Assembly: GCF_052425735.1 (NCBI RefSeq)
Contig: NC_135763.1
Location: 17,438,298 to 17,502,297, forward strand
Source of the DNA: Oculina patagonica
Taxonomy: Eukaryota
Reading direction: 5' to 3'
DNA: 64,000 nucleotides
The notes beneath the pieces are model-generated. The model was not told where the DNA came from, ran no database searches, and saw nothing but the letters and a program-made list of their open reading frames with translations. Both the position numbers and the translations under genes were made by a program. This document shows positions 16,905 through 59,367 of the stretch, one piece after another; position 1 is the first letter of the stretch; each line of letters starts with the position of its first letter.

Positions 16905-17215
16905 GTAAGTAAATTGTTCATGCGTTTATGATTGTTTAGGCAAATAATAGTTAAAAAATAGCAGAGTGCATTTCTCTTCCTAAATGGCGTGTGAGTTTTT
17001 TAAACAACTTTACAAAAAAAAAAAACACATATTAATTGTTTTAAGATGTGATGTCCGTGACGTGCATGTATTCGCAAGAAAATCTAAAAATAATGTTGCT
17101 TAGTAACCTTTAAATAAATAATTGAACGTGTACAAAAATCTGTTATCATTTTTCAATACTTTATAAATGTTGAAGGATAAGGTCTCGATTAGTTGCGAAC
17201 CAATTTACCACCTAT

Positions 17216-18968: not shown

Positions 18969-19793
18969 GTGAAAAAACAACTTAACTTAATATTCTAATT
19001 ACATCTTGTTAGATGCATCTCACAAATTTGGGTCGCAGATTGACGTCTTGAGTTGCGACATCTAGCTCCATGATTTCTTCATTTTAGCTTAGGAAAAGAA
19101 AAGCAACGAACTTTACAAATTATGATGATTAAGTCGAGGAGTGTGTAATTTGGCTTATAAATTTGTGTTTCAAAGCTTCTTATATTTTCTGAATTTTATA
19201 TAGTGTCCAGATATTTTTGTTATATAGAGTTGTCGAGAAAAGCTCTTTATCTAAATCTGATACCAAATGGAATTGCACATGCATGTAGGTGAACCGATAT
19301 GCCATGTGCTTTGTTTCAACCGATAGGAAAACCCTGCAAAATGTTCCTCCAAAGTTTTGCACATCTTAAAAGCATTTGGTGTTTGTAAACCCGTCTGCCT
19401 AAAGGTTCATAGTCATATTCAGTGACTTATCGGGTAAAGGCACTCAGTCTCTTATGAAGGGCAGGTGTGGCTTGGCCATTCACAATGTAAATATATTGCT
19501 ACTTTGACTGGCAACTGTAAAAAAAAAATCTCATTCTAAACACCCTTCAGTTAACATAAAATTGTAAACACGGACTTGATCAATGCGGACAGACTGCACT
19601 TTTTTGAAAACTTTTTTTTAGTCAGTAACTCGCTGATGAAAATGGTATGAGAAGCTAGCATCCGAAATTCATGAAGCCAGAATAAGAGAATAAGATGAAC
19701 AAATCAAAGTCCCTTTAATTTCAACGATATGAAATACTACTACAGAGGTTTATTCTAGTCCTCGTTTAATTTGGATACTGTTGTGTCTTTCAG

Positions 19794-20971: not shown

Positions 20972-22408
20972 GTAACTATACTCAATATTATTAATATACA
21001 GCATCGCATAGAAACTTATACTACGTTGATTATTTTGTTGGTTTTTATAGTCTAGGAGCCAAGTCTGAGAAATGTTCGAGTCGTTGCACCCCCCTGCTAT
21101 ATTTGTGAGAAAAGCAAAAAAAAGACATATTAACATCTAAGTAGTACAGAAAAATATTTTTTATTGATGGGCTAGCGGGACATCGCTCCGAAATCGGCAT
21201 TCCCGTACGGGTACCGTTTTATCCAATTATGCTAATTTTTCAAACCTGAGAATTTGTAAGAGCCTGTACAGTGCAGTTTGGAATGCTTGATCGCACAATG
21301 CTAGAAGTCAAGTCATCTGTGTTGATGGGCTGTATTGTCTCGCTTTGACACTCTTTAGTGATGCTTTGTTGTATAATTGTTGCTGCGTGATACCGTGTTG
21401 CAATGTCATTGTCGTGTCGTAGTGGTACTCTCCAGTTGACGACAAGCATAAGACTTTTCGTCTTTGGCTAACTTGTTTAATACAGCAGACACGGATATAG
21501 CGCTTGGATACACCCATTCCTATATTACTATTTTGCGTGATGAGCATTTCCTTGGTTTTTGAGATTATTATTAGAGGGGGCGTCTTTTAGACACGGGTCG
21601 TTTATTAGAGAGGGGCGTCTAATACAAACTTTACACTTCAGGGGAGGCATTTATTAGATACGAGGCGTTTATTTGAGAGTGTGCGTTTATAAGATCATTT
21701 ACTGCAGTCCTTTTTAAACTTGAGCAAAAACTCTTGAAATAAGTCTACAGAACACTGGGCGCAAAATATCAAATTGCAGTTCCAACCAGGGTCTTAATTA
21801 AGTTCTTGTTATAATTAAGATAACTTTATTTTTACTGTTAATACTAACTCTTTCAGTCTGGGTTCCTAGAGATATTTGTGAGGCGAGTGTGACTCTCCAC
21901 GTGTAGAAATATGGGTAAATAAATCACGATATTGTATAAATGTAATTGCTCACGTGAGAAAGTGCGACATCTTGGAAAACAATATTTAAGGAAATGATTC
22001 AAGTCAATATTACATATAACTGCTGCGTAACAGGAACTCCTCTGAATGACTGTCTCAAATGAATGATTAATTTTTATATGCTTACACCCTGGCGTTCTTG
22101 TTTACTAATTTGGGAAAATAGACTAATAAGTTTTTGAACAGGAAAAGAAGTCCACGTCCAGGAAGCTAACATAAACAAACATTTCATTGAACAAAATTAA
22201 TTTGGAATACTTGCGCTGCACAACTCTGCTTGGCAACTTTTCGTGATTTTTTTTTTTTTTGATTAGAACATAGAAAATTGATGTTTGGCCATTAAATAAT
22301 TTACAACATTTCCTACCAACAGTTCCTATAGAAACAGAAAAATAAACTTATGCTTAATGATGTGACTAACGTTAGAGAATTTTGACTTAATATTGTATAT
22401 CCTATTAA

Positions 22409-24183
22409 GGTCGCGGGGATCTATACAGCATGAATAAATTCATGAAGCGAAATTTTGCTTGACATGCATCTTTTAAAACGCTTATTCCTCGGTTGTGATG
22501 AATGCGATTTATTAAGCTCAAATTTTACAGAGACATAAAGAAATGATAAAAGATTATGTATGTCATCTTGTATTTGGTAGATTGTACCTACGGCGATGTT
22601 ATAGCCACGATACTGCCAAATTGGGAAGAACATGATTTCGTGGCAGAGTTTGTAGAACGAGTAGGAGACAGCACACTGTGATCTTGTCAAAAACTAATCA
22701 GTCAATATCTCTAGAGTGTCATAACAGAAGCGGATTTTTTAATTTAAAGTTTTCCAGCAAGTTATGGCGGTTTAAATGTGCAAATTTTAATTGAATGCCT
22801 TCTACCTCTTTCTAAAAGCGCTCTTTTAAAATTCCGCCTCTGTTATGACACACTACAGTATTCCTAGTTTACCTCTCTGCAGTGGCAGCTCATGAAGTTC
22901 TATATCCGCGCTGAATTCTCTGCCACAAAATTGTCGGAAAAGTCCAAACTTTGAGATTTCCGAAGGTGTCCCGATCAAAAAATGGTTTAAAAATGATAAT
23001 TTTGGTAATTATATTCCACGCTTTAATGATGAGAACAATGCGTTTTCAAAGAGACAAACAATTCCAGACGCAAACACATCAAATCACGCGCGCGTGCTCA
23101 TATTTTTTATGCACTCCCGCAATATCTCGTCGTTAAGGTCGCGGGGGATACCAACAGCATGAATAAATTCATGAAGGGAAATTTTGCTTGACCTGCATCT
23201 TTTAAAACGCTTATTTCTCTGCTGTTATGGGTGCGATAAAGCTCAAAATTTACAGAGACATAACGAAATGATGAAAGATTGTGAATGTCATCTTTTATTT
23301 GGTAGATTACATTTTACGGCGATGTTATAGCCTCGTTAGTGCCAAATTGGGAAAAACATGATTTTGTGGCAGAGTTTGCGGAACGAGTAGAAGACAGCAC
23401 ACTGCGATTTTGTCAAAAACTAATCAGTCAATACCTCTAGAGTGTCATAACAGAAGCGGATTTTTTAATTTAAAGTTTGCCAGCAAGTTATGGCGGTTTA
23501 AGTGCGCAAATTTGAATTTAATGTCTTCTACCTCTCTCTAAAAGCGCTCTTTTAAAATTCCGCTTCTGTTATGACACACTACAGTATTCATAGTTTACCT
23601 ATCTGCAGTGGCAAGTCATGAAGTTCTGTATCCGCGCTGTATTCTCTGCCACAAAATTGTCGGAAAAGTCCAAACTTTGAGATTTCCGAAGGTGTCCCGA
23701 CCTAAATACGATCATTTTGCCAAGGAGAGATGTAATTATGGTAATTATATTCCACGCTTTTATGGTGAGAACAATGCGTTTTCAAAAAGGACACGATTGT
23801 TTATGCCGAATATTTTTGTGATTACTCTGAGTACAATAGTTGCAGAAATAGTCAAATTTAAATAAAAATAAGCTCAAAGACTTCCTACAATCTATATGAA
23901 CGTATGTCGCTAAGTGTTGTTTTAAATTGGTTAAAATATCAAAGAAACAGGGATTTTTTACAAGTCACGCGCACGCGCTCATATTTTTGTCCGGTCATAA
24001 ATATCTCGTAAAGTTGTCGATGTGAGTCGTTGTACTTCGTGCATACGCTTTAAATAAATGCATAATGATGAGCCTAAGGTGTCCCCCGCGACCTTAAGTT
24101 CTCGATGTCAGTCGTTGAACTTCGTGCATACGCTTTAAATAAATGCATAATGATGAGCCTAAGGTGTCCCCCGCGACCTTAAG
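22409..24183. repeat. 728-bp tandem repeat (2 copies, the second with a ~150-bp insertion) plus a terminal 2x ~60-85-bp tandem, inside an NWD intron
   Basis: The unit starts at GGTCGCGGGG at 22409 and again at 23137. Each unit contains an internal inverted repeat (GAGTGTCATAACAGAAGCGG … CCGCCTCTGTTATGACACAC). The tail at 24040-24183 repeats …GAGCCTAAGGTGTCCCCCGCGACCTTAAG twice. Confidence 0.8.
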
Positions 24184-28186: not shown

Positions 28187-28653
28187 GTAAATAATCGTAT
28201 TTACATAATTAAGGACCTCATATTATTACGTATAGAAGTTAATTCGGACAATAATTCTTTAACTAATGTCAGATAGGTTCCAGTGCAGTTTCGCAAAAAA
28301 AAGAAAAATTGGAAAATTTTGTATTTTTAACCCAACACCCTGTTCACCTCTTGAAACTATGAGTGGATGTCATCTTCAGGGGTTCTCTATCTTTACCCGG
28401 ATGATCTTGCCAAACAGTGCAACCAAGTTTGAAAATTGTAAAAATAAAAACAAAGAATGAAAACGATTAAAATTTTGTACGTGGTTAAAATAACCGAACT
28501 CCCCCTCATTGCTTCACTGTAGTAATTTTCAAGACGGTAAACTTTAGTAAAGAATTTACGCACAAAATGGTTTTTGCTTTGTTCTTCAAGTCAGGTGTGT
28601 GGTGCTTGTAACTAATAGTATTTCGAGTCAGGTGTTTTCGGTTGTCAATCCTG

Positions 28654-28654
<1 letters not shown>

Positions 28655-28706
<52 letters not shown>

Positions 28707-28725
28707 GTCAACCAATCAACCAAAC

Positions 28726-28813
<88 letters not shown>

Positions 28814-28889
28814 CAATCAATCAATCAATCAATCAATCAACCATCAATCAGTCAATCAATCAATCAATCAATCAACCAATCAGTCAGTG

Positions 28890-28928
<39 letters not shown>

Positions 28929-37914: not shown

Positions 37915-38522
37915 GAGGGTCCCTTAGAGGTGGCTGGTAACGGTTTCCAGCACTTTCCAGCTCTTATATTTGACGGGTCAGTACTACAAATCTTAACCAG
38001 TTGATGCTACAATAATGGTATAAAATTAATGCCCAATGATTGTAAATATTTGTGATTATTTTCATGACGTCATTGTCTATAGCAAGTATACCGTAAACAC
38101 CCTAATTGGAATGCTTATACTCAAAAACGAGCTCGATGACCCCATTTTATTATTGAACATTGACAGCATGAAGATACAATTTGCAAAGTTAAAAAAATTT
38201 ACGAACCGTTTCAGAGCCACCTTAAATTTTCAATTTTTTAAGGTGGCCGAAACTTCGTAGAATTTTTTAACTGCAAAAATTCTTACATGCTAATCAATTT
38301 CAATAATAAAAAATGGGGTATCGAGCTTTTGAGTTATAACATAAACGAAATTAGGTTTAGTATGTTGCTATAGTAACCAGTGACGTCATGAAAATAATCA
38401 CAACATATTCACCAATATTGGGATAATATACATATGTAGCAAATGATAAAGATTTGTATTACTGACCCGTCAAAGTAAGAGTGGAAAGTGCTGGAAACCG
38501 TTACCAGCCACCTTAAGTAGGC
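37915..38522. mobile_element. foldback element: ~240-300-bp inverted arms forming a 600-bp hairpin with a central mini-palindrome CCACCTTAAATTTTCAATTTTTTAAGGTGG
   Basis: 37915-37985 (GAGGGTCCCTTAGAGGTGGCTGGTAACGGTTTCCAGCACTTTCCAGCTC…GACGGGTCAGT) is the reverse complement of 38458-38522. GTGATTATTTTCATGACGTCATTG at 38050-38075 is the reverse complement of 38375-38400. The right arm is contiguous with TIR copy 1 of the large element. Confidence 0.8.
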
Positions 38523-39135
38523 TTTCTCCAAAAATCGACTAATATCGCCTTTCGGCGGCACAAATTGAAAAAATAGATTTCGCTCGTATTTTGCCCATAG
38601 ATAGGCCCTAGTGAGAAACTAAACGGACTGCAGTTAGTTTTTCCTAATACAGCTTCCTTTCGTAGAAATATGCAAAAAAAGATTTTGCCCCAAATTGGGC
38701 GCAAAATCAACTTCCGGTTTGACTGATTTTATTGAAAGTTTGATCGTCTCGTGCGTTATACTGCAGCTGTTTATTGATATTTCAATAATATTTATAATGT
38801 CTTTAGGTATTTAGTGTATGACTGAGCGAAAAATAAAACAAATCGAGATTTATTTTTAGCCTGAAACGGGGATAAATCCAAAGGCAAAATTTGCAAATGA
38901 GTAGCAAGCGAAATTATGCAGTAAAACTCTGCCATTTTTTTCTATGTGCGATAACCTAAAATATCGTAAAAACAATTTTTATGGGTTAACTAGACATTTA
39001 TCTAATAAGATACTCAAAAAAATCTCTGGGGAAAAGGTTTTTAGTGGCCCACTTTGGCCTTTGTTTATCACTAGTTTTGCCGTAAATCAGAAAAAATGTA
39101 AACAATTGCGTGACACTGCTTGTCACAATACCCGC
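38460..39135. repeat. long inverted-repeat copy 1 (~650 bp), the left terminus of the composite element
   Basis: About 85% identical to the reverse complement of 46041-46712. For example, TTTGCCCATAGATAGGCCCTAGTGAGAAACTAAACGGACTGCAGTTAGTTTTTCCTAATAC matches GTATTAGGAAAAACTAACTACGGTCCGTTTAGTTTCTCACCAGGACCTATCTATGGGCAAAAT, and GGTTTTTAGTGGCCCACTTTGGCC matches GGCCCGCTTTGGTCTG…. Confidence 0.8.
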
Positions 39136-40789: not shown

Positions 40790-43534
40790 TCACTTGTAGC
40801 AGGTACAAGATTTCACCACCTCTTGAAGCTTATCGATGTAAGGCTTCTTGCGGGTTATCGTGACATTTGAAACATCAATGCCTAGAAAGATGCAGATGTC
40901 GCGCAAAACGGTAACACGAAAAGTAGCTGCAAGTTTGCCACTGGAGGCAAGCTCGCAGATGTTATAAGTGTCATGCATAATGGGATGCTGAAGAGCTACT
41001 AAATTGGACACATCTCTGCGCATCTCACTTAACGCTTCTTCATGGCGCGCACAGATCTCTTCTTCCTCGTCTTCCTCGGTCACAACATCAACATTTCGTT
41101 TGGCAGCCAGTCTGGAAAAAAAGCCCCGGATTTGCTGCGTTGTCAGGAATTCGCTGAATGTGAACAGACGATTGCCATTGGAATCTTTGGCAGTCCTCAT
41201 TTCTTTGGACACAGTGGCCGGGTCAAGCTTTCTTCCTGTTTTTTGCCCTATCTCAAATTTCTTTATGAGGTAATCTTTTTGATTGGAATTGAATCTTTTC
41301 CCAACAAAGGAACTCTTGAGCGCCCAGCCCATGGACATAGGAGGATTCTGAACATCACAACTGCTATCTTTTCCGAGGCACGCCACGTCGCCTAGTTCCT
41401 CGACTTTGGATCCACCCTTTTCAAGCTCATAGGCATACCTTAGCATTGCTCTGTCCAGAAGTGTCTCCTGTTCCAAAGCACGTTTGTGCTTTCCACATTG
41501 AAGGTGTTGCTCAAGACTGGAGTACCTTTGATATGTCATGATGCAACCTTCTTCAGGACAAGAAAACAATCCAGAATTGGCGTTTCCCTCGTCGCTGGCA
41601 CTTCCGTCATCATCGCCGTCAGACGAGGTAACTTCTGCAGGGCATTTAACCTTCCGAGGTTTCAAATCGACAAATGGCAAATGAGTGCTCCTTTCACGAT
41701 CAGTTCCGATATCGACAATCAAGTGACGTTCGCCATCGCTATCAGTCACCTGGAATTTGCTCCAAGGAATTAATTTTCCCGGGCCAATTCCGTATGCCCT
41801 TCACACCCTCAAACAATCGCTTTCATACTGGATGTTGTTAACAAAACTAACACCTTCCCATCTGACGGCTTTCTGCGTTTGCAACTGAGGCGTTTCTACC
41901 TCAATGTCATTGCCTTCATTGAGGTAGATTTGCATGTGGGATTTAATGGTCGCCGCTTTTCGGTCACATGCTCCCTTGCCACCTTGTGGATCCGAAAAAT
42001 CCATTCTCTTCAAGGTAACACCGGCTTTATCTGCTACCACTTTAGCACCAACAATGGTCGAAACACAGTGATAGCACCCCGCGTTGTCCTGTCTGTAGAA
42101 TACTGATTCAAGGTTTGGCATACCAATCTTTAACTTTGTGAGAACATCCGCCATTATGTCAAGCACTGAGTGACTGTCCTGGTTGCAAGCTTGAAAAATG
42201 TGCACGAATGCCATCGTCTCGATTTGTCGGTTTGGTCGCTGCCTTAGTGCCACTGTGATGTGCCAAGGTATCCCTCGCTTGGCAAACCAGTCGCTTTGAC
42301 TTTCTCTATACTTTCTGGGAAGGAACTTCATGGCCCAATCTTGGACCAAGAAAACAGAATTTTCCTCTAACATTTCCATTACATCGACTCTGGCCTCATC
42401 TTGGTTAACTGCACGAAGAAGGTGAGCTTTCCAGGCACTGATGCTACGCCTTGCTTGTTCAGTGTTAAAGGTCAACTCGTCCATTTCTTCGCTTTCTGTT
42501 GCAATTAGCTTAAGGGCGTCTTCTATTTCTCCAATGCTCACCTCCACCAGGCTGCAACGATCACACACCCCATCATGGATATGACTACATTCTCCCTGGT
42601 ATTCGGAGCATTTGGCATCACTGAGCGCAAAACATCTACAATGGTCTGGGACAGTCGACGACTCAGAAACATGTACCTTAAAAAATCAAAGAGGATCGTA
42701 TGAGAAATTACGCTTTAAAAACAAGCACGTGTTAGTCTCAAAGCTGTTACCATGTTTCAAGGGTTATTTGTTGTCCTTACCGTGAAGTCACTTTTCAGGT
42801 AACGCTTGGCCAATTTCAGTTGCTCCTTTCTTTGTTTCGCCCAGGACATACCCATTCCAAGCTCTCCCAGTCGCTCAGCCACAATTTCAAGTTCCTCAAA
42901 CGCTTTCGCGCCAGAAGCAGTGATGTAGTCCAGACCTTGTAAGGATTTCCTCACGGAGGCAGAACAGACGTCAAGAATTCGAAGCAAAGAGCTTCGGCTC
43001 AAGCAGGTTATGCCTGACTCCTTGCAGTACTCTTGATATTCTGTGCTATACGTTCTGGAATCATCACGTCCTGATAACATTGGGTACTGCGATCACTTCA
43101 CCGGAACTCAAAGTAAGGTTTTTCTGTCCAAATGGTAAATCTTGAATGATGTGCTGACTGGTTATGAAACAAATGAAGTGGTCAACCATTTCCGGGGAAA
43201 CGTACATTCTCTTCTGGATAGGTTTAGGAACAGGAGAGCCTCTACCATGGATCAGCAGGTGCTGTCTGGCAGAATCGATACTGTGCGAGGTTTGAATCCA
43301 CCCAACCAGATAGACATTGCGACTGTATCCCACTGGGTAGCATTTGTAGCATTCGCTAAGACAGTAAAAAGATGACTTTTTTGTTTCTGAGGATGTTGAG
43401 GGAAAATGCTGATTTATTGCCTTTGAAGAGACCAGTTTGTCCCACAATTTATCAGAATCTTCGCCAGCTATAACTTCCAATGAGGCGGCTACAGCCTCAC
43501 TCGCCTTCTTTACATAGTAACGTTTGTTCTTTCG
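40790..43534 (-). pseudogene. putative DDE/D transposase-like gene (unknown superfamily). At least 2 exons are joined by a GTAAGG…TTTTTTAAG intron (42677-42780), and the frame is interrupted by an in-frame TGA (41798-41800) and a frameshift near 43064-43080
   Basis: Blocks on the complement strand: 43534-43064 (KK/R-rich NLS-like start RRRKNKRYYVKK…); 43080-42781 (…KSLQGLDYITASGAKAFEEL…AKRYLKSDFT|GTAAGG); 42676-41801 (VHVSESSTVPDHCRCFALSDAKCSEYQGECSHIHDGVCDRC…LVQDWAMKF…VFYRQDNAGCYHC…MDFSDPQGGKGACD…ESDCLRV*); 41797-40790 (…CPEEGCIMTYQRYSSLEQHLQCGKH… ending RKKPYIDKLQEVVKSCTCYK*). Confidence 0.5.
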
Positions 43535-46040: not shown

Positions 46041-46712
46041 CCCTCGCGCTTTACTAGCCTTGTCACGTAATTCCTGTCACGCTAAAACGGCAGATTTTCG
46101 GCGAAATTAGTAATAAGTACAGACCAAAGCGGGCCACTTAAAACCTTTTTCCCAGAGATTTTTAAGATATCCTATCAGATGGGTGTCTCTTTAACCCATA
46201 AAATGTATATTCACGTTATTTTAAGTTATCGCACATAGAAAAAAATGGCAAAGTTTTACTGCATAATTTCGCTCGCGACCCAATTGCAAATTTTGCCTAT
46301 CATTTTATCCCCATTTCAGGCTCAAAATTAATCTCGAATTGTTTTATTTTTCGCTCAGTCATACAATGAAGACCTAAAGAGAATATAAATACTATTGAAA
46401 GATCCATAAACAGCGGCAGTAAAATGCGCGAGGCGATCAAATTTTCAAAAAAATCAGTCAAACCGGAAGTGGATTTTGAGCCCAATTGGGGCGAAATCTT
46501 TTTTGACATATTTCTACGAAAGAAAAATGTATTAGGAAAAACTAACTACGGTCCGTTTAGTTTCTCACCAGGACCTATCTATGGGCAAAATATTAGCGAA
46601 AACGTGCATTCCATTTGTGCTGCTGTCTGGTTGATAATTCTAGGAAGTCGCACTTAATACCGTAAAATTTGAAAAATACTCCTACCCTCTCAAAAGTAAG
46701 CCCCAGACCTAA
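46041..46712. repeat. long inverted-repeat copy 2 (~650 bp), the right terminus, ending ~110 bp before the NWD terminal-exon acceptor
   Basis: See copy 1. Confidence 0.8.
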
Positions 46713-46820
46713 AGTATTTTAAAAGCCGCACAAATATCTCAGACGCAAAAGCTCTTTCAGCAATAACCTTCTGCTTAATCCAGTATTCAATCCGCGTTTT
46801 TTTTGTATCTCTGCCAACAG

Positions 46821-47420
46821 ATCACAGAGGCAGCTATATCAAGCACTTGCGGTAGACTTGTGGCAATAAGTGTACCAAGACAAAACAGCAGTCAGGAATG
46901 GATGAAGGGACCCGCCGACATACACATGTGGGATCTTAACAACCACACAGACTGGAAAGTCCAGTTGACTTTGCATTCCTCTATAAGTCGTCAGCTGAAA
47001 GTTGGTTGTGACTATCTGGCGACGTTTGTTCAATATCGTAAAAATGTTTCTGATGCTAAGAGAATTAAAAGCGGTATGCGAAGAAGGGGCTCAAACGTTG
47101 CTTACTCTGTTGTCGATGAAGCAGTCATCCAGCTCATTGATAAGCAGGGATCGACGCTTCAGACTTTTCAAATTCCTGGCAAGTTTTCTGGTGTGAGTGT
47201 GGTTAATAGTGAATCCACTTTGAGAAGCATTTCGGAAGGACTGTTGGTTTATAGTCTTCAGGAAGGCGTCGTGAAGCTACAGAACGTCAAATCTAACAAA
47301 GTGTTAGGAACCTTTACCGTAAACAACACGGAGATAACAGCTGTGAACATTGCATCAAATGGGAAATCTGCCGTTGTAGGCTGTGCAAATGGTAATGTGC
47401 ACATCATTCAGATGATTTGA
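46821..47420 (+). CDS. NWD-like terminal exon (…ADIHMWDLNNHTDW…TAVNIASNGKSAVVGCANGNVHIIQMI*, WD40)
   Basis: Acceptor CTGCCAACAG at 46820, phase 0, stop TGA at 47418-47420. A 9-kb intron containing the composite transposon precedes it. Confidence 0.75.
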   Translation: MTEAAISSTCGRLVAISVPRQNSSQEWMKGPADIHMWDLNNHTDWKVQLTLHSSISRQLKVGCDYLATFVQYRKNVSDAKRIKSGMRRRGSNVAYSVVDEAVIQLIDKQGSTLQTFQIPGKFSGVSVVNSESTLRSISEGLLVYSLQEGVVKLQNVKSNKVLGTFTVNNTEITAVNIASNGKSAVVGCANGNVHIIQMI

Positions 47421-47965: not shown

Positions 47966-49840
47966 ATTTATTGCGACAATCACAATGGTGTGGTGATGTT
48001 CTGCGTATTTGCGTGCTATTTTATATAGATTGAAGAATCGTTGCCCTGAGGTATGCGTTATTTTTTAAATTTTTTGGATTATGTATACGAACTGTTCTTA
48101 AAAGATCTAACTGAAGCTACAAACGGCTAACATGGTGTCTTTCTACCGATGTAAACTTGCGATCAGATCAATTCATTTTTTCGCGATCTTATATTTAAGT
48201 ATTACGAGGGTAAAGAGTAAATTTTAACACGGAAGGGAACTTAAAGGTTAAGCCCGTATTGCCAGTGCCCTTGTGTTGTGTTCTTTGCAAGCGCATTCCC
48301 TTGTTTCTCATTTATAAATTCAGTTGTAACTAATTTGTTTGTTTGTTTGTTTTTTTCTATTAACGTGAAGTTTCCGTTAAAAGTAAGTTCCCTTATAATT
48401 ATACAAGAGTATTTCTTGGTTTCCTTGAAAGAAATGGTAATGTACACTTTGTTTCAAAATCCCTAGGAGTACCTTGGTCTGGCCGCAAATCTTACTCTGC
48501 TTACAAACTTAAAGTATAAGGTTACTCATCCAGTGCTGACAACACCCAATTAAACAGAGACAAGATCATGTTCATATGTGACTTTTATTTTCATCAAATA
48601 GAAGCTGGTTTTCCTTGTAACAGCTAGAGTATGGAGTGCGTGAATCTTACACAAATAAAAGCACGCACTGACCGTATTATGAACGAAAAATTTGGAATAC
48701 CGTACGGTATGAAGAAATTTTTAGCTCGTAATACGTTCAGCAAGTGTATTTATTTGCGCACAAATGCACGAAACATAATATTCTAACCCTTACGTTTACT
48801 AAAATACTAAAAATCTTGCGTTGATTCATTTAACAGTCGCTAAATAAGGCAAATTGAAATAAATAGTCATGAAAAAAATGTTTTCTGGCGTTGTAAAAGA
48901 GTATTTTGTCATGGAAGTTAAAAGTAAATAAAAATATGCCACATGGCCGTTTTTTTTTTGTTTTTTTGTTTGTCTGTTTTTTTTTTTTCAAAGTTTTGCA
49001 GTACCTTGTAATATTGAATTAGACTATTCCTTGGTACTTTTATTGCCTTTTGTGTCATTTAGTTACCTTCCTTATCTTGAAAAAATTGTATCTTCAGCAC
49101 AGTGCATTATTTTGATATTTAATGACTCGTGGAAAACCAACTTTCATTTGTTTTAGAATATAGTTAAGTTTGTTCGTCAGTTCATTCGTAAATCCATATC
49201 AATGTGAGTTTTCTTTCAGTTAATTTCTTGTTATATCACTTCTAGTTCACTCAGTGTGTAGCTTGGCTTTCTCAGTTGTTGTATAATGTCAAAATGTGGG
49301 ATTGATCCTGTTGAGAAAGAAAAAATAAAATTTGAGCGATCTAGAAAAGATGGACTGAGAGGAAAAGGATGCGTGTTTCTTTCTTCATTTGTTTTACATT
49401 GCCTTGTAGGTTTAAGAGGTCCTTTTTTTCTTTAAGCTAAGATATTCTGTTTCAGCCATTTCAAATTTCAATTTTAAGGTATTGATATTGTTTCGCGATT
49501 GCAGTCTGCGATGGGAACTAAATAAATTTAATCGTTTGGAGTGAATAAGATGGGTAGGGATTAGATACTGGAAGTAAACAATGGGTAGGGGTTAATAATT
49601 CCAGCCGGCAGAACATAGAGTTATGGGGTGTTTGACCTTACCTTTTAAGCGTGTACTTTTGAATCCTGAGGCAAGAACGAAGAACAATGGTAGCCAGACA
49701 TTTGTATCTACAATGTCTACAATGACGAATTATTTGATAATTAGCACTTTGTCCCTTTATGCACAACAGTAAATTAACGTCTCTCGTCATGGAATCGTTA
49801 CAAGTGTCGTTATTTGTAATGCATAACATAATAAAGCACA

Positions 49841-51574
49841 TCACATTTTGTACTCAGGAATGCATGACAATTTATTCCAGACAAAAAGGTGTACAATCTG
49901 TGAGATACTGCCAAATATGCGTGGTCTTTGTAGGCTTTTGCTTGCTTGGCGTACTAATTTTCGCAGGAATTATTTATAGTCTTTATACTGTGTGTTTCAT
50001 ATCTTACCGTTTGAGATGTAAAAAGAAGTGTTTTTCAGTGACTGTAAGGCGTCAGAAGGTTTGCTGATTTCTTTACCTCTCTCCTGAATAAATGAAAATA
50101 AAAAATGTTCTTACTTTTATACTTTTTGTACAGTTTCGTTATTCCTAATTTCATCATCTTGTTTTCTTTTCATCTAACACCATTTGGTTCTCAAATTATC
50201 CATCAGGGCACAATTTGCATGACTAACATTAATTTTCGCTTTTTTCTTCTCAGGTTGTCTGGTTTACGTTCACTTTATTTGTTTTCTGCACGTCATTTAC
50301 AATTTACGTTGAATGCGTTTGCCATGCATGTGCACTTCCAAGTTCCTTTTCCCCTCCTTCTCCCCCTCTCCCCGCTTCCATCAGTTTGTATTAATATCGT
50401 TAATTTATGATCATTAACTTACATGCTCAAAATATGCCACAACTTCGCTGTTAGCCCGGTCTTTTTCATGTGATGCTGTTATTCCACAGAAAAATGATTG
50501 CTTAGTTTTGTCAACGTGAATGATGTCAAAATGGCAACGAGGGAAATCTGTGGCGTTTTCAGGCGTGTGCCATACATCGTTTGATTTTATCGTCTGCAAA
50601 AAAAAGAACATAATTATTGTCAATAAAGGTTTCTAACCATTAGTTGTGTTACTGGTCTCTTTACTTTTGTTTGCGATCCAAGGGGGGGCTTGGGAAGATA
50701 TCAAAAGAGATATAGCGCTTTGTCGTATCTAGCGGTCAATGTTCTTGGTAAAAAACATTACTTCTAACACGGTCTATGCCATAGTTGTAAGTAATAAAGG
50801 AGATCCGTAAATTGACTGTCATTTCGGAGAAGCAAGCAAGGGATTAAAAAGCCATTTGACTGAAAGTATTTCTGGGGTGCCAACTAGAAAAAAAACCGTA
50901 TTAAAAAGATATCCAACCTAAGGGTGTTTCTATGCATACCTTCTCTTTGTTTCCTTTGATCTGCCATCCTGGTTCCAGAGCAGTAAACTCAATTCTGATG
51001 TCTTCATCACTGTTAGACACAAACAATCCAGCGAGAGCTGTCAGTAATCTGTTTCCCAGTTCTTCTTCTTTCTGGCAAACGTTCTGTTAAAAAAGAGAAA
51101 CAAATGTGTACGATGTTACTATTCGCAAAGCTCATCAGTAATGCTAATGTAGCTGAACAAAATTTTGAGAGCATTTGCGAATCACTGATTTCAGTTATAA
51201 TTCGTTACCTTAAAAGCTATTGTTGAATCATCTATAAGATAAACCCGAATTTTCCAGTCTTTTCCTTGTGTTGGTTTTTTTCCAAAGATCGCCATTTGCA
51301 TTCGTTTCTGGTCGTCATTTCCTGGAATTCCAAAAGCTGCAATTTCAATGTCTTCCTGCAGTGGTGGTAGAATCACTTCAATGTCGTTATGCTTCTCTTT
51401 TACTTTGTCTTTGGGGTAGACCTCGGTAACATTTCTCCAGCTTGTCTTTTGAGTCTTTCCTTTGCAGTGGCTCAGCAGTGGTCGGCATTTGACAGCAATA
51501 TTCCATGTGTTACCAGGAGCCCTCTTATCTTTTAAGCGTGTACTTTTGAATCCTGAGGCAAGAACGAAGAACAA
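49841..51574 (-). pseudogene. downstream duplicate (copy A) of the same gene's 3' part: partial exon 1 (51209-51574, truncated at the duplication junction) plus exons 51083-50940, 50593-50423, 50083-50008 and 49953-49841
   Basis: The exon-intron structure and splice sites are identical to copy B. The 5' part of exon 1 is replaced by copy-B 3'UTR sequence at the 51526/51527 junction. Confidence 0.55.
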
Positions 51575-51718
51575 TGGTAGCCAGACATTTGAATCTACAA
51601 TGACGAATTATTTGATAATTAGCACTTTGTCCCTTTATGCACAACAGTAAATTAACGTCTCTCGTCATGGAATCGTTACAAGTGTCGTTATTTGTAATGC
51701 ATAACATATTAAAGCACA

Positions 51719-51832
51719 TCACATTTTGTATTCAGGAATGCATGACAATTTAGTCCAGACAAAAAGGTGTACAATCTGTGAGATACCTGCCAAATATGCG
51801 TGGTCTTTGTAGGCTTATGCTTGCTTGGCGTA
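51719..51832 (-). CDS. unknown gene, copy B terminal exon (…IFGSISQIVHLFVWNKLSCIPEYKM*); the 3'UTR contains AATAAA
   Basis: Acceptor AAAATTAG, stop TGA at 51721-51719 (complement). The phase is consistent across all 5 exons. Confidence 0.45.
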
Positions 51833-51886
51833 CTAATTTTCGCAGGAATTATTTATAGTCTTTATACTGTGTGTTTCATATCTTAC

Positions 51887-51962
51887 CGTTTGAGATGTAA
51901 AAAGAAGTGTTTTTCAGTGACTGTAAGGCGTCAGAAGGTTTGCTGATTTCTTTACCTCTCTC
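51887..51962 (-). CDS. unknown gene, copy B exon 4
   Basis: Acceptor TTTTCATTTATTCAG, donor GTAAGA, 25 codons plus 1 nt. Confidence 0.45.
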
Positions 51963-52301
51963 CTGAATAAATGAAAATAAAAAATGTTCTTACTTTTATA
52001 CTTTTTGTACAGTTTCGTTATTCCTAATTTCATCATCTTGTTTTCTTTTCATCTAACACCATTTGGTTCTCAAATTATCCATCAGGGCACAATTTGCATG
52101 ACTAACATTAATTTTCGCTTTTTTCTTCTCAGGTTGTCTGGTTTACGTTCACTTTATTTGTTTTCTGCACGTCATTTACAATTTACGTTGAATGCGTTTG
52201 CCATGCATGTGCACTTCCAAGTTCCTTTTCCCCTCCTTCTCCCCCTCTCCCCGCTTCCATCAGTTTGTATTAATATCGTTAATTTATGATCATTAACTTA
52301 C

Positions 52302-52472
52302 ATGCTCAAAATATGCCACAACTTCGCTGTTAGCCCGGTCTTTTTCATGTGATGCTGTTATTCCACAGAAAAATGATTGCTTAGTTTTGTCAACGTGAAT
52401 GATGTCAAAATGGCAACGAGGGAAATCTGTGGCGTTTTCAGGCGTGTGCCATACATCGTTTGATTTTATCGT
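52302..52472 (-). CDS. unknown gene, copy B exon 3 (TIKSNDVWHTPENATDFPRCHFDIIHVDKTKQSFFCGITASHEKDRANSEVVAYFEH)
   Basis: Acceptor TTTTGCAG, donor GTAAGT, 57 codons. Confidence 0.6.
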
Positions 52473-52792
52473 CTGCAAAAAAAAAAGAACATAATTATTG
52501 TCAATAAAGGTTTCTAACCATTAGTTGTGTTACTGGTCTCTTTACTTTTGTTTGCGATCCAAGGGGGGCTTGGGAAGATATCAAAAGAGATATAGCGCTT
52601 TGTCGTATCTAGCGGTCAATGTTCTTGGTAAAAAACATTACTTCTAACACGGTCTATGCCATAGTTGTAAGTAATAAAGGAGATCCGTAAATTGACTGTC
52701 ATTTCGGAGAAGCAAGCAAGGGATTAAAAAGCCATTTGACTGAAAGAACCGTATTAAAAAGATATCCAACCTAAGGGTGTTTCTATGCATAC

Positions 52793-52936
52793 CTTCTCTT
52801 TGTTTCCTTTGATCTGCCATCCTGGTTCCAGAGCAGTAAACTCAATTCTGATGTCTTCATCACTGTTAGACACAAACAATCCAGCGAGAGCTGTCAGTAA
52901 TCTGTTTCCCAGTTCTTCTTCTTTCTGGCAAACGTT
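52793..52936 (-). CDS. unknown gene, copy B exon 2 (NVCQKEEELGNRLLTALAGLFVSNSDEDIRIEFTALEPGWQIKGNKEK)
   Basis: Acceptor TTTTTAACAG, donor GTATGC, 48 codons, phase 0. Confidence 0.6.
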
Positions 52937-53060
52937 CTGTTAAAAAGAGAAACAAATGTGTACGATGTTACTATTCGCAAAGCTCATCAGTAATGCTAAT
53001 GTAGCTGAACAAAATTTTGAGAGCATTTGCGAATCACTGATTTCAGTTATAATTCGTTAC

Positions 53061-53494
53061 CTTAAAAGCTATTGTTGAATCATCTATAAGATAAACCCGA
53101 ATTTTCCAGTCTCTTCCTTGTGTTGGTTTTTTTCCAAAGATCGCCATTTGCATTCGTTTCTGGTCGTCATTTCCTGGAATTCCAAAAGCTGCAATTTCAA
53201 TGTCTTCCTGCAGTGGTGGTAGAATCACTTCAATGTCGTTATGCTTCTCTTTTACTTTGGCTTTGGGGTAGACCTCGGTAATATTTCTCCAGCTTGTCTT
53301 TTGAGTCTTTCCTTTGCAGTGGCTCAGCAGTGGTCGGCATTTGACAGCAATATTCCATGTGTTACCAGGAGCCCTCAAACAACAATGCTCAATCAGAACA
53401 GGCGGAGGAGAGGTGCTTGGAGGGACTTTGTAGCAGCCGCTGACTTGATAGAGACTTGATTCGTGATCTTCATCGCTCGCTGTTTCTAATGCAG
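53061..53494 (-). CDS. unknown gene, upstream copy (B), first coding exon in the window (…SDEDHESSLYQVSGCYKVPPSTSPPPVLIEHCCLRAPGNTWNIAVKCRPLL…KIRVYLIDDSTIAFK); an earlier exon is expected beyond 53494
   Basis: Acceptor TTTTAAG at 53495-53501 (complement) and donor GTAACG at 53060-53055 (complement). There are 144 in-frame codons and no ATG, so this is an internal exon. Confidence 0.55.
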
Positions 53495-56400
53495 CTTAAA
53501 AGTAACAGCAATTCATTGTTACAATCCGTTCTTTATTATCGTACACCTATCTTTCCCAGCAGATTTGTAAGTCTGTTAGCACAACCCATCGCGTCAATGA
53601 AACGAAAGGAAGACAAAAAAATAACATCACTTTTTAACCAACTCAAAAAAGTAAGCAAGAAGGGATCGAGGAAAAAAATTGTTCGTGTTACAACTTCTTC
53701 TTCGTAATCATCCTAAGAATAACTCATTACTGTGAAGGTATTCAAAATAGAGGTGAACAAAAAGGAAGGACTGTTAATAAAATCGCTTTTATTATACTTC
53801 TGTTCCGCGATCCGTCCCAGGCGCATGCAATTTGCAATGGCTACTTAAATAGTGACTGGTTTGTTTATTTGTTTGTTGTTTGTTTGAAAGCTTTAAAAGC
53901 TCGACTGTTTTTTTTTATCGTTTCTTTTCTTACAGTTCGGAAAGATCGCCTAGAAAAATCCATACGAACTATGGTTGAAATGTATTTTGAGATAAAGTCA
54001 CTGAAAACAGGTTCACTTTGATCACAAAAATTCTTGTTTTTCTTACGAAAAATAGTAAAATAAAGTCAGCAATCCACATTTTTTTTGAAGTTGATTAATC
54101 GGAAAAGCGTACGATCACTTTCCCTTGAACCAGATACGTTGGGCATGCTGCAACAAGTTCTCAGTTACAAATTACCTGCCGGCAGCAAATTTGCTGATGC
54201 TTGCAAATTTAAAAATTGTCGACACTGACTTCGGTTTTGTAGAATATTGTATTTTAATGCCACAGCGTACGATAGCGAAATAAGAAAGAAATTTCCGCGA
54301 AGATGTTCATGCATTTAATTTTTTTTCCGAATTGCTGGGAAGTTTTTAATAGTCAAGCGAATCGCAGACAATTTTTTTTGAGGTTACACACTTATCCAAA
54401 CATAATATAAGCCATTTTGGATCATGTGGACCATGCATTTTTACAACTTATCGAGTCGGTTAATTCCGTTTGGTTTCCATTTTCCGGCGCCACCGATTTC
54501 CGGAGTGTCATGTAACGGACGTCTTGAATGTCACGACACAGTCTAGAAACAAGTGCGGAATTTTTTTAAGGAAACGCTTTACGGGTTCTTTTTAACGATG
54601 ATTAAAAATATAACAAATTTCTTAAATCAAGTTTTATGCAAGAAATTCCGTTTCATATTAATGTTTTTTTTCTCTTTTTGGTTTTCCTCGTTGATTTGGC
54701 TCTCCAGTCACTCAGTTTCATATCCAGTGTAACCTACTCTATGTAACTCTGAGACTTACCGGATTCCATGGAAATGGTTTGGTTTTAACTCCGTAGAGTG
54801 ACAGTAGCTTGCTTTGGTAGTATGCGCAGATAACTGTCCAGAACTGTGATCTAAATCATCTTTATATCGTTTGCGGATGACCTAAAATAGACATCACGAT
54901 CCAAATTTCGTCACCCTATCGACCTTCAAACAAACGCCTGCTTTGACGGAAGCGCTGATAATAATTGATGACCACTTAAAACCGACGAATTTCAGAAGGG
55001 GTTTTTCCCTTTGCTAGTCAAGATGTCCCGTGTTTTTGTTTCGCTTGACATTTACCTTGGTAAACAAAACAAAACAAAACAAATGCACGCTTGCTTAGGC
55101 ATGTTGTTTCAGTTTTCAATTTTAAGGAAATGAATCAAGAAAGACAAAATAACAATAAAAGACAGCTGAAATTTCATTCCTCGATTCAGTTCGGCAACAC
55201 TCTTCTTCTTTGGAATCAATTTACACAAGTATCTTAGCTTATAAGTATCTTTCAAATAGTATGTTTGCATTCTTTACACGCCTAAGGGGTTTTTCCCAAT
55301 GAAACAAAAACCCGCTTGTCAAGCAGATTGAGTGGATATAAATAATCCGCTGTTATGCAAATCAAACACCGGTCGGGGAATCCCCTACTTAGTGAGTGGG
55401 CAAATAAATGCACTTTCGAATTCTTTGTTACACGAGGGCTTTCTCCCGTTTACCTGTGTCACGAGATCTGTCAAACTCTTCCCCTTTACAGTTTCGAATT
55501 TTCCAGAGCCATCATATAAATGAGACTGAGACAAAAATAAATACATAGAAATAAATCGATAAGATATCAGTGAAACTTTCGTTTCTTTCGCGTAATAACA
55601 AAAGCCAGCGTTCAATAGCATAGGTTCTTACGTCATTAGCAAAAAGAACGAACGGTCTTGTGACTAAAAAATTCAATTTCTATCCGTCTTTGAATTATAA
55701 GTTTGCTTTAGCAGTACCAGCAAAGCAGACTAGACAGACTAGCCAAAGGCCTTTTCAAGCAAATAAAATTAGCTTGGAATACGTCTACAAGAAGGAGGCG
55801 GTAAGTACTTTAAGGATTTTTAAGACGCCTTTTCGATATTTCCTTTCAATTTCTTTCTCCTTTCAAGTTGTTTTCAAGCAGAGATTAGTGACGGCGTGGT
55901 CAATATTTATAGACAGAAAGGTGTTTATTTGCATCAAACTACGATTATACTGAGTATATTTTGAGTCGATTCTCCTTGGATTTTCTATGGAAATGCTGTC
56001 GCGTGGTCCCATGTCATTAGCGTGTTCACGCGATTAAAACATCAGTCACGCAATGTCAAGGGCATTTTGAAAGTGTGCACATTGCAAAATAACTCTAGTA
56101 ACGCATTCTGTCGAGTACTCCTTCCAAAGGGGCACAATTCGTCAGAATAATAACGAAACTTTGAGTCATTTGGCCCAAGATAACAGAATTTAGGTTTTGA
56201 AGCGGAAGGCTTTGATGAGTTATGCTTACTCAACATGAAGTCGAAAGGTGTTGTGTAATCAATATGCAAATCTGAAGGGAAAAACACCTTGCGTGATGAA
56301 CAATTTCCCGGCGGATGCGAAAACACATTTTATGACATCCTGAGCTAAAAGACCATTATCACGACTCAGTCTGTTATTAAATAATGATAAAGTTTTGAGT

Positions 56401-58138
56401 AAAAAATCACAATCGAGCAATAATAAAAGAAATGCTTCGATTAGCAAAACACGATTGAAGGGGATCCCCCTTGCCGGAACATAAGTGGTAAAAAGAAATG
56501 TGGTTGTAAAAATATGTACAATTCCATCTTTTTCAGATTTTTTTTATATACCTGGAAAGCAGGAAGATTCTAGAACATTGTCGACGGTTCTTGGTGCTAT
56601 AAGAAGAGGTGCTCTCGCAGCAAGGACAGTGTTCCTTTTGCACCAAACATACTGACAACATCAACACCAGAACAGAAAACAAAAACTCTATGGAAAGGAC
56701 ATGTAAGATTGAGTAGTCAACTTTAAATATGGTTCTACTTTTTTTACTGCTTTCTGTTAATGAAATCCTGTACTGTGCCACCATCCAAACGAAAGCTATT
56801 AAGAAGTGCTTTCATTTGCAACGGTTTGCTTTTCAGGATTATTTCAAATGAAATTTAGTTTCTTAAGCTCTTTTTTTAAGCCTGACATGTTTGGGATTGA
56901 AAGTTTTATTTTCCGCTGAAAACTAGATTTGACGTGTAAGTCCTTTATACGACCAATTGTTTTGTCAGAAAGAAGATGCATGTTATCTGGTAAAAGTGCT
57001 CCATAATTTCTGACCACCCAAATTATTATTCGTGTTATAATATGGCCGTCTGTAGCAAGGACTGGGAACTACTAAATTCATGAATTTAAATGGGAGCTAA
57101 TATCACAGTTCATATCAAGTTGTCACGCAATATTTTCAAGTGAAATCACGTGACATCGTACATGGCTATGACATGGCCGCCATGTTTAAAGAAGTTCACC
57201 CTGCATCCTGGCCGCAGTAATGACGAATAGCATCAACGGTAAAGCCAAGTTAGAAAACACTCCACGCACATGGCGGTCAACTTGAATAGTATTTTAACGA
57301 TTGCTTACGACATGTTAGGAGGTCTTCGTCTGTACATATTTGAGTGTACACGTGTGTCATGTAGACGTGAAAATGTTCAACAGTGTCTAGTTTAATAGTT
57401 GCATCGTGTGATCTTTATTTATGGGACGGTTTTTAGGACGACAATTTAAGAAGCAGCAATAAGGATAAGGGCAATGTACAGAGACTAAGTTCGTTCAGTA
57501 GAGTCACGGTTCGAAATGACAATAATTCAAATTTAAGAGATCTGTACAGACTTGTGAACGTATAGCGGGTGGTTATTCTGTAAGTAAGTAAAATTTCGAG
57601 TTTAAATTGGTGAGAATTAACACATTAAGGCTCAGCGAGATAAAATACAATTAAAAAAAACGATAAAGAACCAATCCCCGCTAAAAACTAACTATTGACT
57701 GATCACTAAATTGGCTGACTGATTTGAGTTGATTGACAAGAAGTTGATTGGCAGAGTCTGACTGACGGATAGAGAAAAATCTTTAAAGCCAGTCTATGTG
57801 AATCTCAAGTTAACAAAACTTTTCCTTACAAATGAAGGTGGGTCAACTGACAAAAGCCATTAAACGTGATAATTTTATGTACAAAAGAAGACGATGTACA
57901 AATGTCAGTACCTATTTCAAATTCTTACAGCATACCACTAAGGATATCTTGAGCATATCTTTTACGGTCATACCTGATGAATGATGGCTTGCATAAAAAC
58001 GTGCCTTACTATAGATGTTATGTCTTGTTTCCTGTGAAAAATCGGAAGACTACAAGACATTTGAAAGCTACAAGTACCTAGCTTGATTTTCCAAGGTGCA
58101 TCAACACACAGTAATATCTGTTGTATACTATGTTGCAG

Positions 58139-58330
58139 AAAATCATGTCAGAGGATATTCCACCTACGAAGCAACACCGCTACACAGATTTAGGCTGTGA
58201 GCACGACAAGTATTCTGTTGACATATACAGCTTCTTGCAGCCTGGCCAGCAGGAAGGAAATTGGTCACGTAAACAGCTCTTCCTGTACATAACAAGAGCT
58301 GTAGAAAACAACAGAAAGGTCTTCCTACAG
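58139..58330 (+). CDS. unknown + strand gene, internal exon (KIMSEDIPPTKQHRYTDLGCEHDKYSVDIYSFLQPGQQEGNWSRKQLFLYITRAVENNRKVFLQ)
   Basis: Acceptor TGTTGCAG at 58138, donor GTATTT at 58331, 64 codons. Confidence 0.55.
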
Positions 58331-58371
58331 GTATTTATTTCACTTACCATTACCATTACCATTACCATCGC

Positions 58372-58427
<56 letters not shown>

Positions 58428-58438
58428 CTGCCATCATG

Positions 58439-58511
<73 letters not shown>

Positions 58512-58522
58512 CTGCCATCATG

Positions 58523-58598
<76 letters not shown>

Positions 58599-58609
58599 CT
58601 GCCATCATG

Positions 58610-58658
<49 letters not shown>

Positions 58659-58712
58659 CTGCCATCATGATCATCATTATCATCATCATCATCATCCTCA
58701 TCATCATCATTA
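58372..58712. repeat. (ATC)n microsatellite organised as a higher-order repeat, with a CACTGCCATCATGATC punctuation every ~60-90 bp; it starts 40 bp after the exon donor at 58331
   Basis: Read directly. It explains the poly-Ile/Asp/Met ORFs at 58121, 58180 and 58340. Confidence 0.95.
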
Positions 58713-59367
58713 GAACAATTGAAACAGCAGGAATAACAAAGCGAGTGCATTAGTCAAGAGCTGGAGAATTCAACGAATTGGACAATTACCTTCATCATGT
58801 TTTGCTCGTTTCATCTTTTATTTATTATAAACTTCTAAAACAATCATCATAACGATCATTTTAACCTTCATTACTACTAAAGTCCTTCAAAAGTAATATA
58901 CGAAAACTGGACTTGTCATGTTCACTATAATTTATAATTTTCCCGTCTAGTGTTTAGTGATCAACTATTCATCGAAGTGGAGGTGGCTTTTGGTGAATAC
59001 TTACCGAGCCGCGAAGCGGCGAGGTAAATATCATTTACAATTTATAGCTCTTTTATATAGGGCGTATTTATTTGAAACCCACGCGTATAGCCGTCGCATT
59101 TGGTCGTTGGAATTTTTTTTTGTTTCGAGCTAAAAACAATAAAACATTCCAGCGAGCAAATGCGACCGTTACACGCGTATATTGCAATATAATTTGATTT
59201 GATATTTCCTATTTATCTGTCTGTCTATCTGTCTGTCTACTGAGAATTTCTTCGTAGCTCCCCATATTACAGTTTAATCTATATTTGTATTGAAATTAAT
59301 TTGGAAGAACGAATTTCGATGTTAGCCACGTAACATAACATGACAATGATTATTCGTTCGTTTCCAG

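Follow-up and report, generated by a model that had tools for sequence, protein, structure and literature searches.

The window analysed here, a 64,000-nucleotide stretch of the Oculina patagonica genome (NCBI RefSeq assembly GCF_052425735.1, contig NC_135763.1, positions 17,438,298 to 17,502,297 of the forward strand), carries on its minus strand a gene of seven coding exons that runs from an ATG at 54769 to a stop codon at 49233-49231. The ancestral-type product of this gene, about 325 amino acids (aa) long, would consist of a ZU5-like subdomain, a UPA domain, a hydrophobic segment encoded by exon 5 and a 24-residue tail encoded by exon 6. Within the gene lies a direct head-to-tail tandem repeat made of unit B (1853 bp, upstream in the direction of transcription) and unit A (1888 bp, downstream), which adjoin with one common base (Table 1). 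A sequence-only reading of the locus had proposed that a tandem duplication recently arose inside a gene on the minus strand, and this was borne out by the alignment of the two units. The locus is probably best understood as a real, lineage-specific, in-frame duplication within a seven-exon ZU5-UPA gene, in which loss of a splice donor leaves a predicted two-module open reading frame (ORF).

Units A and B shared 97.4% identity when gap columns were counted and ~99.5% over aligned bases, a length and level of identity that cannot arise by chance. They differed by 10 substitutions and six indels, the latter comprising one of 9 bp (49707-49715), one of 27 bp (50867-50893) and four small ones (1-2 bp each) within homopolymers; the two larger indels had been recognized previously, together with one small indel where four are present. 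The unit spans codon R44 of exon 1 through position +5 of intron 5 and takes in exon 1 except for its 5' quarter, all of exons 2-5 and 5 nucleotides (nt) of intron 5, with none of the last exon, stop codon, 3' untranslated region (3'UTR) or polyadenylation (poly(A)) signal inside it. The upstream breakpoint (53376/53377) falls inside exon 1, after codon L43, in agreement with the earlier placement of the junction within the coding exon that starts at 53494; position 53494 itself, formerly given as the outer coordinate of the repeat, is the acceptor of that exon. In the family alignment (A1), two motifs, I-E-H-[S/C]-C-L (residues 38-43) and E-I-A-A-F-G-x-P (residues 104-110), were invariant or nearly so; the breakpoint lies directly after the first, and neither matches the HFS/SFS autocleavage tripeptide.

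An outgroup contig, L001 (GCA_044670265.1, 10,095 bp), was collinear with the minus strand of the window over 59989-48082 at 85-93% identity and carried the unit once, as a syntenic single-copy ortholog. At the 5' end of the gene, the start codon (54769-54767) lies ~95 nt downstream of a TATA-like TATAAA (54866-54861), the surrounding block (54838-54739) being 96-98% identical to the outgroup versus ~87% for neutral sequence, and the phase of exon 0 fits the exon 1 acceptor. The 325-aa model aligned without gaps to a 320-aa Pocillopora protein up to residue 315, and the gene model was collinear with the homologs P0005 and P0006, the latter (a 326-aa ORF) being regarded as transcript-derived because its contigs are at most 1.3 kb long. 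Exon 5 encodes (D)TNVWLPLFFVLASGFKSTRLK; the tail sequences of models from Stylophora and Pocillopora (...LVALGCKSTRLKG...) and that of P0006 (...TNAWLPTFLVFF...SRLK) matched it. Exon 6 was 100% identical to the outgroup over its ORF, phase-compatible and collinear with the tail of P0005, and is preceded by a strong acceptor (TTTTATTTTTTCTTTCTCAACAG/; pyrimidine fraction 0.84). The identity of exon 6 to the ortholog included synonymous sites (window 49231-49430; L001 ~8560-8760), and the last ~120 nt of intron 5 together with ~100 nt of the 3'UTR were ~93-96% identical versus ~87% in other non-coding sequence, which suggests extra constraint around exon 6, such as a regulatory or RNA-level element or the C-terminal ...SELEVI motif. 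Two other ends for the gene were set aside. Models of 575 and 316 aa, in which exon 5 is terminal and continues through AAAAG/GTAAGG (the slash marking the exon boundary) to a TAA at 49594-49592, were rejected because the outgroup was only ~80% identical there with a 5-bp frameshifting indel, whereas 49307-49231 was conserved; for a long sixth exon of the Montipora type (weak match at 49174-49124), the coding-strand match and the ensuing stop were both absent. The Desmophyllum locus (L002) contained exons 1-4 and the conserved exon-4 donor, and a recognisable exon 5 was not found in it within 2 kb.

The sequence-only reading had instead taken exon 4 as terminal (...FYISNGKI followed by a stop), with a 3'UTR and an AATAAA behind it, so that four final exons plus the 3'UTR would lie in the repeat, copy B would keep all exons together with a poly(A) signal of its own, and a 5'-truncated copy A would be reached by read-through. 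A TGA does lie three codons past the exon 4 GT, and an AATAAA follows ~120 nt downstream in copy A, at a place that in the outgroup falls within a locally conserved island. However, this AATAAA (49876) is the only one after exon 4, the homologous site in copy B being a derived ACTAAA. The exon-4 donor G/GTAAGA, where homolog alignments end exactly, is conserved in the outgroup and Desmophyllum, and conservation collapses directly after it into indel-rich divergence from the outgroup, so the GKI stop just beyond it is intronic. Support for exons 5 and 6 comes moreover from homologous proteins, one of them the transcript-derived P0006, and from the complete conservation of exon 6, and the supposed 3'UTR is thus intron 4 plus coding exon 5. 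Since exon 6 and the candidate poly(A) hexamers occur once and lie beyond the downstream end of the repeat, copy B itself lacks a stop codon, a 3'UTR and a poly(A) signal. We regard an exon-4 terminus as very unlikely for the gene as a whole; a soluble isoform polyadenylated in intron 4 of the ancestral gene is possible, at most as a minor product. The ~50-nt intron-4 island with the AATAAA (A 49850-49905; B 51728-51783) is conserved in the ortholog between large indels and may be an alternative polyadenylation site giving such a ...GKI isoform.

Table 1. Coordinates of the repeat, its junction and the exons of the ZU5-UPA gene. Positions are those of the window; a slash marks an exon boundary or the junction, and A and B denote the two units.
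Feature	Position	Strand	Description
Exon 0	54760-54840	-	Putative 5'UTR and ATG GAA TCC G; phase-1 donor G/GTAAGT; 5' end approximate
Exon 1	53061-53494	-	434 nt; N-terminal ZU5-like part; acceptor ttacttttaag/CT; tblastn matches to homologs, ORF
Exon 2	B 52936-52793; A 51083-50940	-	Both units
Exon 3	B 52472-52302; A 50593-50423	-	Both units
Exon 4	B 51962-51887; A 50083-50008	-	Both units; ends AAC G/GTAAGA
Exon 5	A 49707-49642; B 51594-51529	-	66 nt; phase 1 at both ends
Exon 6, single-copy terminal	49231-49307	-	G/GA TCA ... ATA TAA; (G)SIPHFDIIQQLRKPSYTLSELEVI and stop; stop codon 49233-49231
Candidate poly(A) hexamers	ATTAAA 49123-49118; AATAAA 49044-49039	-	Tentative assignment
Duplication unit B, upstream copy in transcription direction	51524-53376	-	1853 bp; exon 1 from R44, exons 2-5B, 5 nt of former intron 5
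Duplication unit A, downstream copy	49637-51524	-	1888 bp; partial exon 1A', exons 2A-5A, first 5 nt of intron 5
Partial exon 1A'	51523-51209	-	In unit A
Duplication junction	51524	none	1 bp microhomology: C on the + strand, G on the coding strand
Junction sequence	across 51524	-	...CTTAAAAGATAAG/AGGGCTCC... (CTTAAAAGATAAG/AGGGCTCCTGG)
Inactivated exon-5B donor	51527-51528	-	AAAAG/AT in place of AAAAG/GT
Predicted fused exon	51209-51594	-	386 nt: exon 5B, ATAAG and partial exon 1A'; open, in frame (...SNVWLPLFFVLASGFKSTRLKDKRAPGNTW...AFK)
9-bp tandem duplication (CATTGTAGA)	49707-49715	-	Copy A only, at the exon 5A acceptor

The junction sequence on the coding strand is ...ACA CGC TTA AAA G/AT AAG AGG GCT CCT GGT AAC..., in which a G>A change at 51528, 4-5 nt from the junction, removes the +1 G of the exon-5B donor. 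The homologous donor is AAAAG/GTAAGG in both copy A and the outgroup, and since both have the G, the change is derived in B. Because the exon-5 donor of B is altered from GT to AT, exon 5B runs in frame into exon 1A'; the frame of the predicted fused exon corresponds to the ORF 51191-51574 in the ORF list, its predicted peptide includes KSTRLKDKRAPGNTW, and the full exon set gives an open ORF of 584 aa with two modules of 257 and 259 aa. That the fusion is in frame (...GFKSTRLKDK-RAPGNTW...) had been noted before, with the upstream part taken as derived from 3'UTR; it is exon-5 coding sequence. An intact exon-5B donor would have brought a frameshift, since the nearest strong acceptor, that of exon 2A, is in a different phase, and in a model so spliced translation ends after 23 codons (...KSTRLKERLPERRRTGKQITDSSRWIVCV, stop). 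Two coincidences are thereby combined, an in-frame join (chance 1 in 3) and the fall of one of the ~6 B-specific substitutions on a two-base donor (~6 x 2/1853 = 0.7% by chance). The donor change may reflect either selection for an open frame or error-prone repair 4-5 nt from the breakpoint. In copy A, the 9-bp duplication creates two AG acceptors 9 nt apart, both in frame.

Polarized against L001, copy B carried six derived substitutions and four derived indels, including a 27-bp deletion, and copy A two substitutions and two indels, including the 9-bp duplication. Non-coding divergence was 0.37% between A and B versus 12.9% between either copy and the outgroup, so that the duplication, or the last homogenisation of the copies, is far younger than the species split; judged from the ((A,B),O) distances, this young age holds even were the repeat collapsed in the outgroup. 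In the assembly, the locus thus shows adjacent copies within one gene that are mutually closest, next to a single-copy ortholog, as expected of a lineage-specific duplication. Relative to the outgroup, the ratio of nonsynonymous to synonymous divergence (dN/dS) over the coding sequence was 0.26-0.28 with a dS of 0.14, the last 5 nt of the unit being taken as coding in this estimate. Between A and B, the final model gave 4 nonsynonymous and 0 synonymous coding changes plus the one splice-site change, and coding sequence was no more alike than introns. This suggests relaxed constraint between the copies, with counts too few for significance (P ~0.06 at omega = 0.27).

Such a level of divergence bears on a different explanation, namely that two haplotype versions of a single-copy 1.9-kb segment were set in tandem during assembly, for example from overlapping contig ends left unmerged and later joined or gap-filled, in which case the organism would have one copy. 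The heterozygosity range of corals is expected to include ~0.5% substitutions plus small and medium indels, as seen here, and four of the six indels are homopolymer-length differences; the ortholog is single-copy, and searches for the junction in independent data gave no match. Against this explanation, there is no signature of a gap (no N letters in the 64-kb window), and A/B is the sole long repeat above 97% identity in the window; the join is clean and head to tail, its microhomology is a single bp, and it offers no similarity on which an overlap step could go astray; and the in-frame join and the donor hit would both stay unexplained coincidences. We consider an assembly artefact unlikely, and infer that the duplication is present in the organism.

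The encoded protein, to which the sequence-only reading could attach no family name, matched the Pfam UPA domain (PF17217) with E=4.7e-13 and 49.4 bits versus a cut-off of 27, over profile positions 2-123 of 140, and its fold appears to be of the ZU5-UPA class. The only solved relative by sequence was UNC5B (3g5b; profile match E=2.5e-6 over the UPA region), and a similarity to LAG1/RBP-J was regarded as noise (Pfam E=0.055; PDB E ~1). Among 5.8 billion proteins searched there were 52 matches, and all those with a named organism came from stony corals (Desmophyllum, Stylophora, Pocillopora, Montipora and Porites). The complete homolog models in this set were 260-375 aa long, had UPA only and were mostly named automatically as "netrin receptor UNC5C(-like)". 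The closest full-length match was 76% identical and the closest fragment 92%, from which it follows that the species of the window lies outside this collection. When 1.84 billion representatives were searched exhaustively with a profile, only 182 matches emerged, in which full-length family members (268-416 aa) had one matched stretch each and long proteins matched via UPA only. The family thus appears, from these sequence searches, to be small and restricted to scleractinians. A two-module member was found neither among the 1.84 billion representatives nor in the other databases searched; of two candidates considered, P0059 is a gene model from which an exon is missing, and P0121 is of UNC5 type, unrelated to the family, and contains a perfect internal repeat. 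The repeat in P0121 (337 aa) covers ~125 aa across the ZU5/UPA boundary and is either another intragenic duplication or an assembly artefact.

An AlphaFold model was made on the homolog P0004, which is 57% identical to the window protein, and was confident over residues 11-255 (predicted TM-score, pTM, 0.70). In Foldseek, this model matched UNC5B (E=8e-14 over 255 columns) and the FIIND of NLRP1 (3e-4), and the whole core, beyond the UPA half, superposed on ZU5-UPA modules, the model placing a ZU5 beta-sandwich directly N-terminal to UPA and packed against it. For a death-fold domain (death domain or CARD) after UPA, no Pfam match was obtained beyond residue 233; the C-terminal ~75 aa consist of a low-confidence linker, a hydrophobic segment of 13-15 residues and a short tail. 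Neither an UNC5 ectodomain (immunoglobulin and thrombospondin type-1 domains), nor a transmembrane helix before ZU5, nor a length of ~900 aa was found, the start codon lying only 15-20 residues ahead of the folded core and homologs measuring 260-416 aa. Autocleavage of FIIND and of autoprocessing ZU5 proteins such as PIDD and UNC5CL requires [S/H]-F-[S/T/C], with a Ser/Thr/Cys nucleophile after a buried Phe (PMC3210808). By inspection, no such [SH]F[STC] tripeptide occurs in the 325-aa model, and the invariant motif before UPA is A-F-G (F107, G108). Tail-anchored proteins have a single hydrophobic helix of ~15-22 residues close to the C-terminus and lack a signal peptide. The hydrophobic segment of exon 5, VWLPLFFVLASGF, averages 1.47 on the Kyte-Doolittle scale across 15 residues, with only ~13 hydrophobic residues and a Pro; it is flanked by basic residues and followed by KSTRLK and 25 more residues. 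In homologs the segment is comparable or longer, and the AlphaFold helix there is of low confidence. On this structural model, the family is a compact ZU5-like plus UPA module lacking death domain, CARD and UNC5 ectodomain, and not a netrin receptor; by analogy, it could serve as a membrane-tethered cytoplasmic ZU5-UPA interaction module.

In the favoured course of events, a 1.88-kb segment that starts at codon 44 of exon 1 and ends at position +5 of intron 5 would have been copied head to tail in this lineage from the ancestral single-module gene, and the 1-bp microhomology points to end joining or template switching rather than inter-repeat recombination. At its origin, exon 5B would have kept a good donor (AAG/GTAAGA) and been spliced to exon 2A with a frameshift. 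With the GT>AT change, exon 5B would no longer be spliced at its old end and would continue to the exon 1A' donor at 51209, so that the default mRNA that we infer comprises exons 0-1-2-3-4-[5B::1A']-2A-3A-4A-5A-6 and encodes the 584-aa ORF, the second module lacking the first two strands of the ZU5-like sandwich. Splicing that skips from a donor in B to its counterpart acceptor in A, or straight to exon 6, would yield the 325-aa protein of ancestral type: because homologous introns share phase, the joins 4B to 5A, 4B to 6 and 1B to 2A restore this product, while 4B to 2A is out of frame. These skips underlie a further possibility, that the duplication is real and the two-module ORF is not expressed, skipping giving the 325-aa protein or out-of-phase joins such as 4B to 2A leading to nonsense-mediated decay; in that case the variant would be either neutral or mildly deleterious, with the donor change arising as a by-product of junction-proximal repair. 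The closeness of the G>A change to the breakpoint is consistent with this, as are the in-frame skips between the units, the symmetry and weak acceptor of exon 5 (the join of exon 4 to exon 6 is also in frame), the incomplete fold of the second module, the A/B differences, which bear no sign of purifying selection, and the searches, which returned single-module members only. Against it, exon definition would recognize an exon of acceptable size (386 nt) between the acceptor of 5B and the donor of 1A', which fits the consensus at 7 of 9 positions, skipping 1.9 kb with four good exons is not the default expectation, and all indels spare the reading frame in both copies. We hold non-expression to be rather less probable than expression of the two-module ORF, and a more serious alternative than an assembly artefact.

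Several points weigh against a real duplication with an expressed two-module product. The duplication is seen in assembly sequence, the divergence of the copies would also fit two haplotypes, and in the fragmented outgroup assembly two nearly identical copies could have been merged into one. No record of the exact junction ORF was found; a junction 28-mer was absent from JGI metagenome contigs, and so was a matched control 29-mer from an unduplicated boundary, which makes that scan uninformative. Inclusion of the fused exon is uncertain because no acceptor of the gene is weaker than that of exon 5 (pyrimidine fraction 0.53-0.58). The 584-aa product may fold poorly, since its second module lacks two strands and a hydrophobic segment lies between the modules, and the fold was modelled on a homolog and not on the window protein. 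A bolder extension of the favoured reading, to which we give little weight and slightly less than to an assembly artefact, is that the donor loss was a selected compensatory fix marking, close to its start, the birth of a two-module protein with a hydrophobic segment inside it or of alternative exon sets, in a coral-restricted, membrane-tethered, death-domain-less family that is related to FIIND/UNC5 modules and has a role in the cell-death or immune signalling of cnidarians.

Elsewhere in the window, inverted repeats at 38578-39088 and 46093-46601 (513 bp, 86%) flank a block of ~44% GC (40790-43480) with three large intronless minus-strand ORFs of 319, 255 and 138 aa, one of them with a C2H2-like FSCPEEGC...HLQCGKH; no Pfam match was obtained for any of the three, and the whole could be a DNA transposon of ~8 kb with long terminal inverted repeats. 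A 595-bp imperfect palindrome (37923-38517) adjoins it. On the plus strand, the ORFs 16435-16908 (MGNGNTKAG...) and 18343-18972 (MVCLIGDKYGYRPVP...) look like N-terminal exons of a NWD/NACHT-type (NLR-like) gene, the former giving a DUF4062 match just below the cut-off (23.8 vs 24.7 bits), and a WD40-like ORF lies at 46803-47420. An older tandem duplication of ~660 bp (22405-23056 and 23133-23793; 89% identity, ~730 bp spacing) was also present, as were a retroelement remnant at 1860-3470 (50% GC; a reverse-transcriptase fragment, RVT_1, Pfam E=1.4e-9, lies at 2427-2792 in a cluster of overlapping ORFs from the two strands), a tRNA-Lys(UUU) gene at 6760-6832 on the plus strand (Rfam 74 bits; ARAGORN), an (ATC/GAT)n-rich trinucleotide minisatellite at 58121-58753 that gives rise to long poly-I, poly-M and poly-D pseudo-ORFs, and a separate short-period tandem array at 28645-28928.

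Compared with the ZU5-UPA-death domain supramodule of UNC5, PIDD and ankyrin (UNC5B, 3g5b), the window protein has no death domain, UNC5 ectodomain, transmembrane region or ankyrin repeats, and its ZU5-like part is short (~100 aa) and not detected by Pfam ZU5, in a total of ~325 aa. For these reasons the label "netrin receptor UNC5C-like" is misleading. The label occurs in coral stress and gonad expression lists (PMC8590396, PMC7579821), carried there by genes that may belong to the present family. The FIIND of NLRP1 and CARD8 likewise pairs a ZU5-like with a UPA-like part; the window protein differs from it in having no SF/S or HF/S tripeptide, so that an autocleavage nucleophile is not evident (PMC3210808), and no C-terminal CARD, NACHT or leucine-rich repeats. 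A ~320-aa ZU5-UPA family may nonetheless be of interest for the evolution of death-fold or inflammasome-type signalling in cnidarians.

The duplication itself resembles the intragenic exon-block duplications that give rise to repeated domains or mutually exclusive exons, in that a single transcription unit holds both copies head to tail, one breakpoint interrupts an exon and the other an intron, the introns keep their phases so that concatenated or alternative use is possible, and the change is lineage-specific and absent from the ortholog. It differs in that one breakpoint falls within a coding exon and produces a fused exon, whose frame is open only through the lost donor, and in that the unit is not a clean domain, starting after two ZU5-like strands and including the hydrophobic tail. 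An internal duplication that breaks an exon normally destroys the frame, and here the frame is kept open by loss of the adjacent donor. If the duplication is real, it offers a dated example of the origin of a repeated-domain protein, with copies ~0.4% apart and a known single-copy ortholog. Its main value is that the gene can be annotated correctly and that the effect of intragenic duplication on splicing can be tested in a tidy case. Current understanding is not overturned: intragenic tandem duplication is a known phenomenon, to which a little-studied coral ZU5-UPA family here adds one more instance, with the donor loss as the twist.

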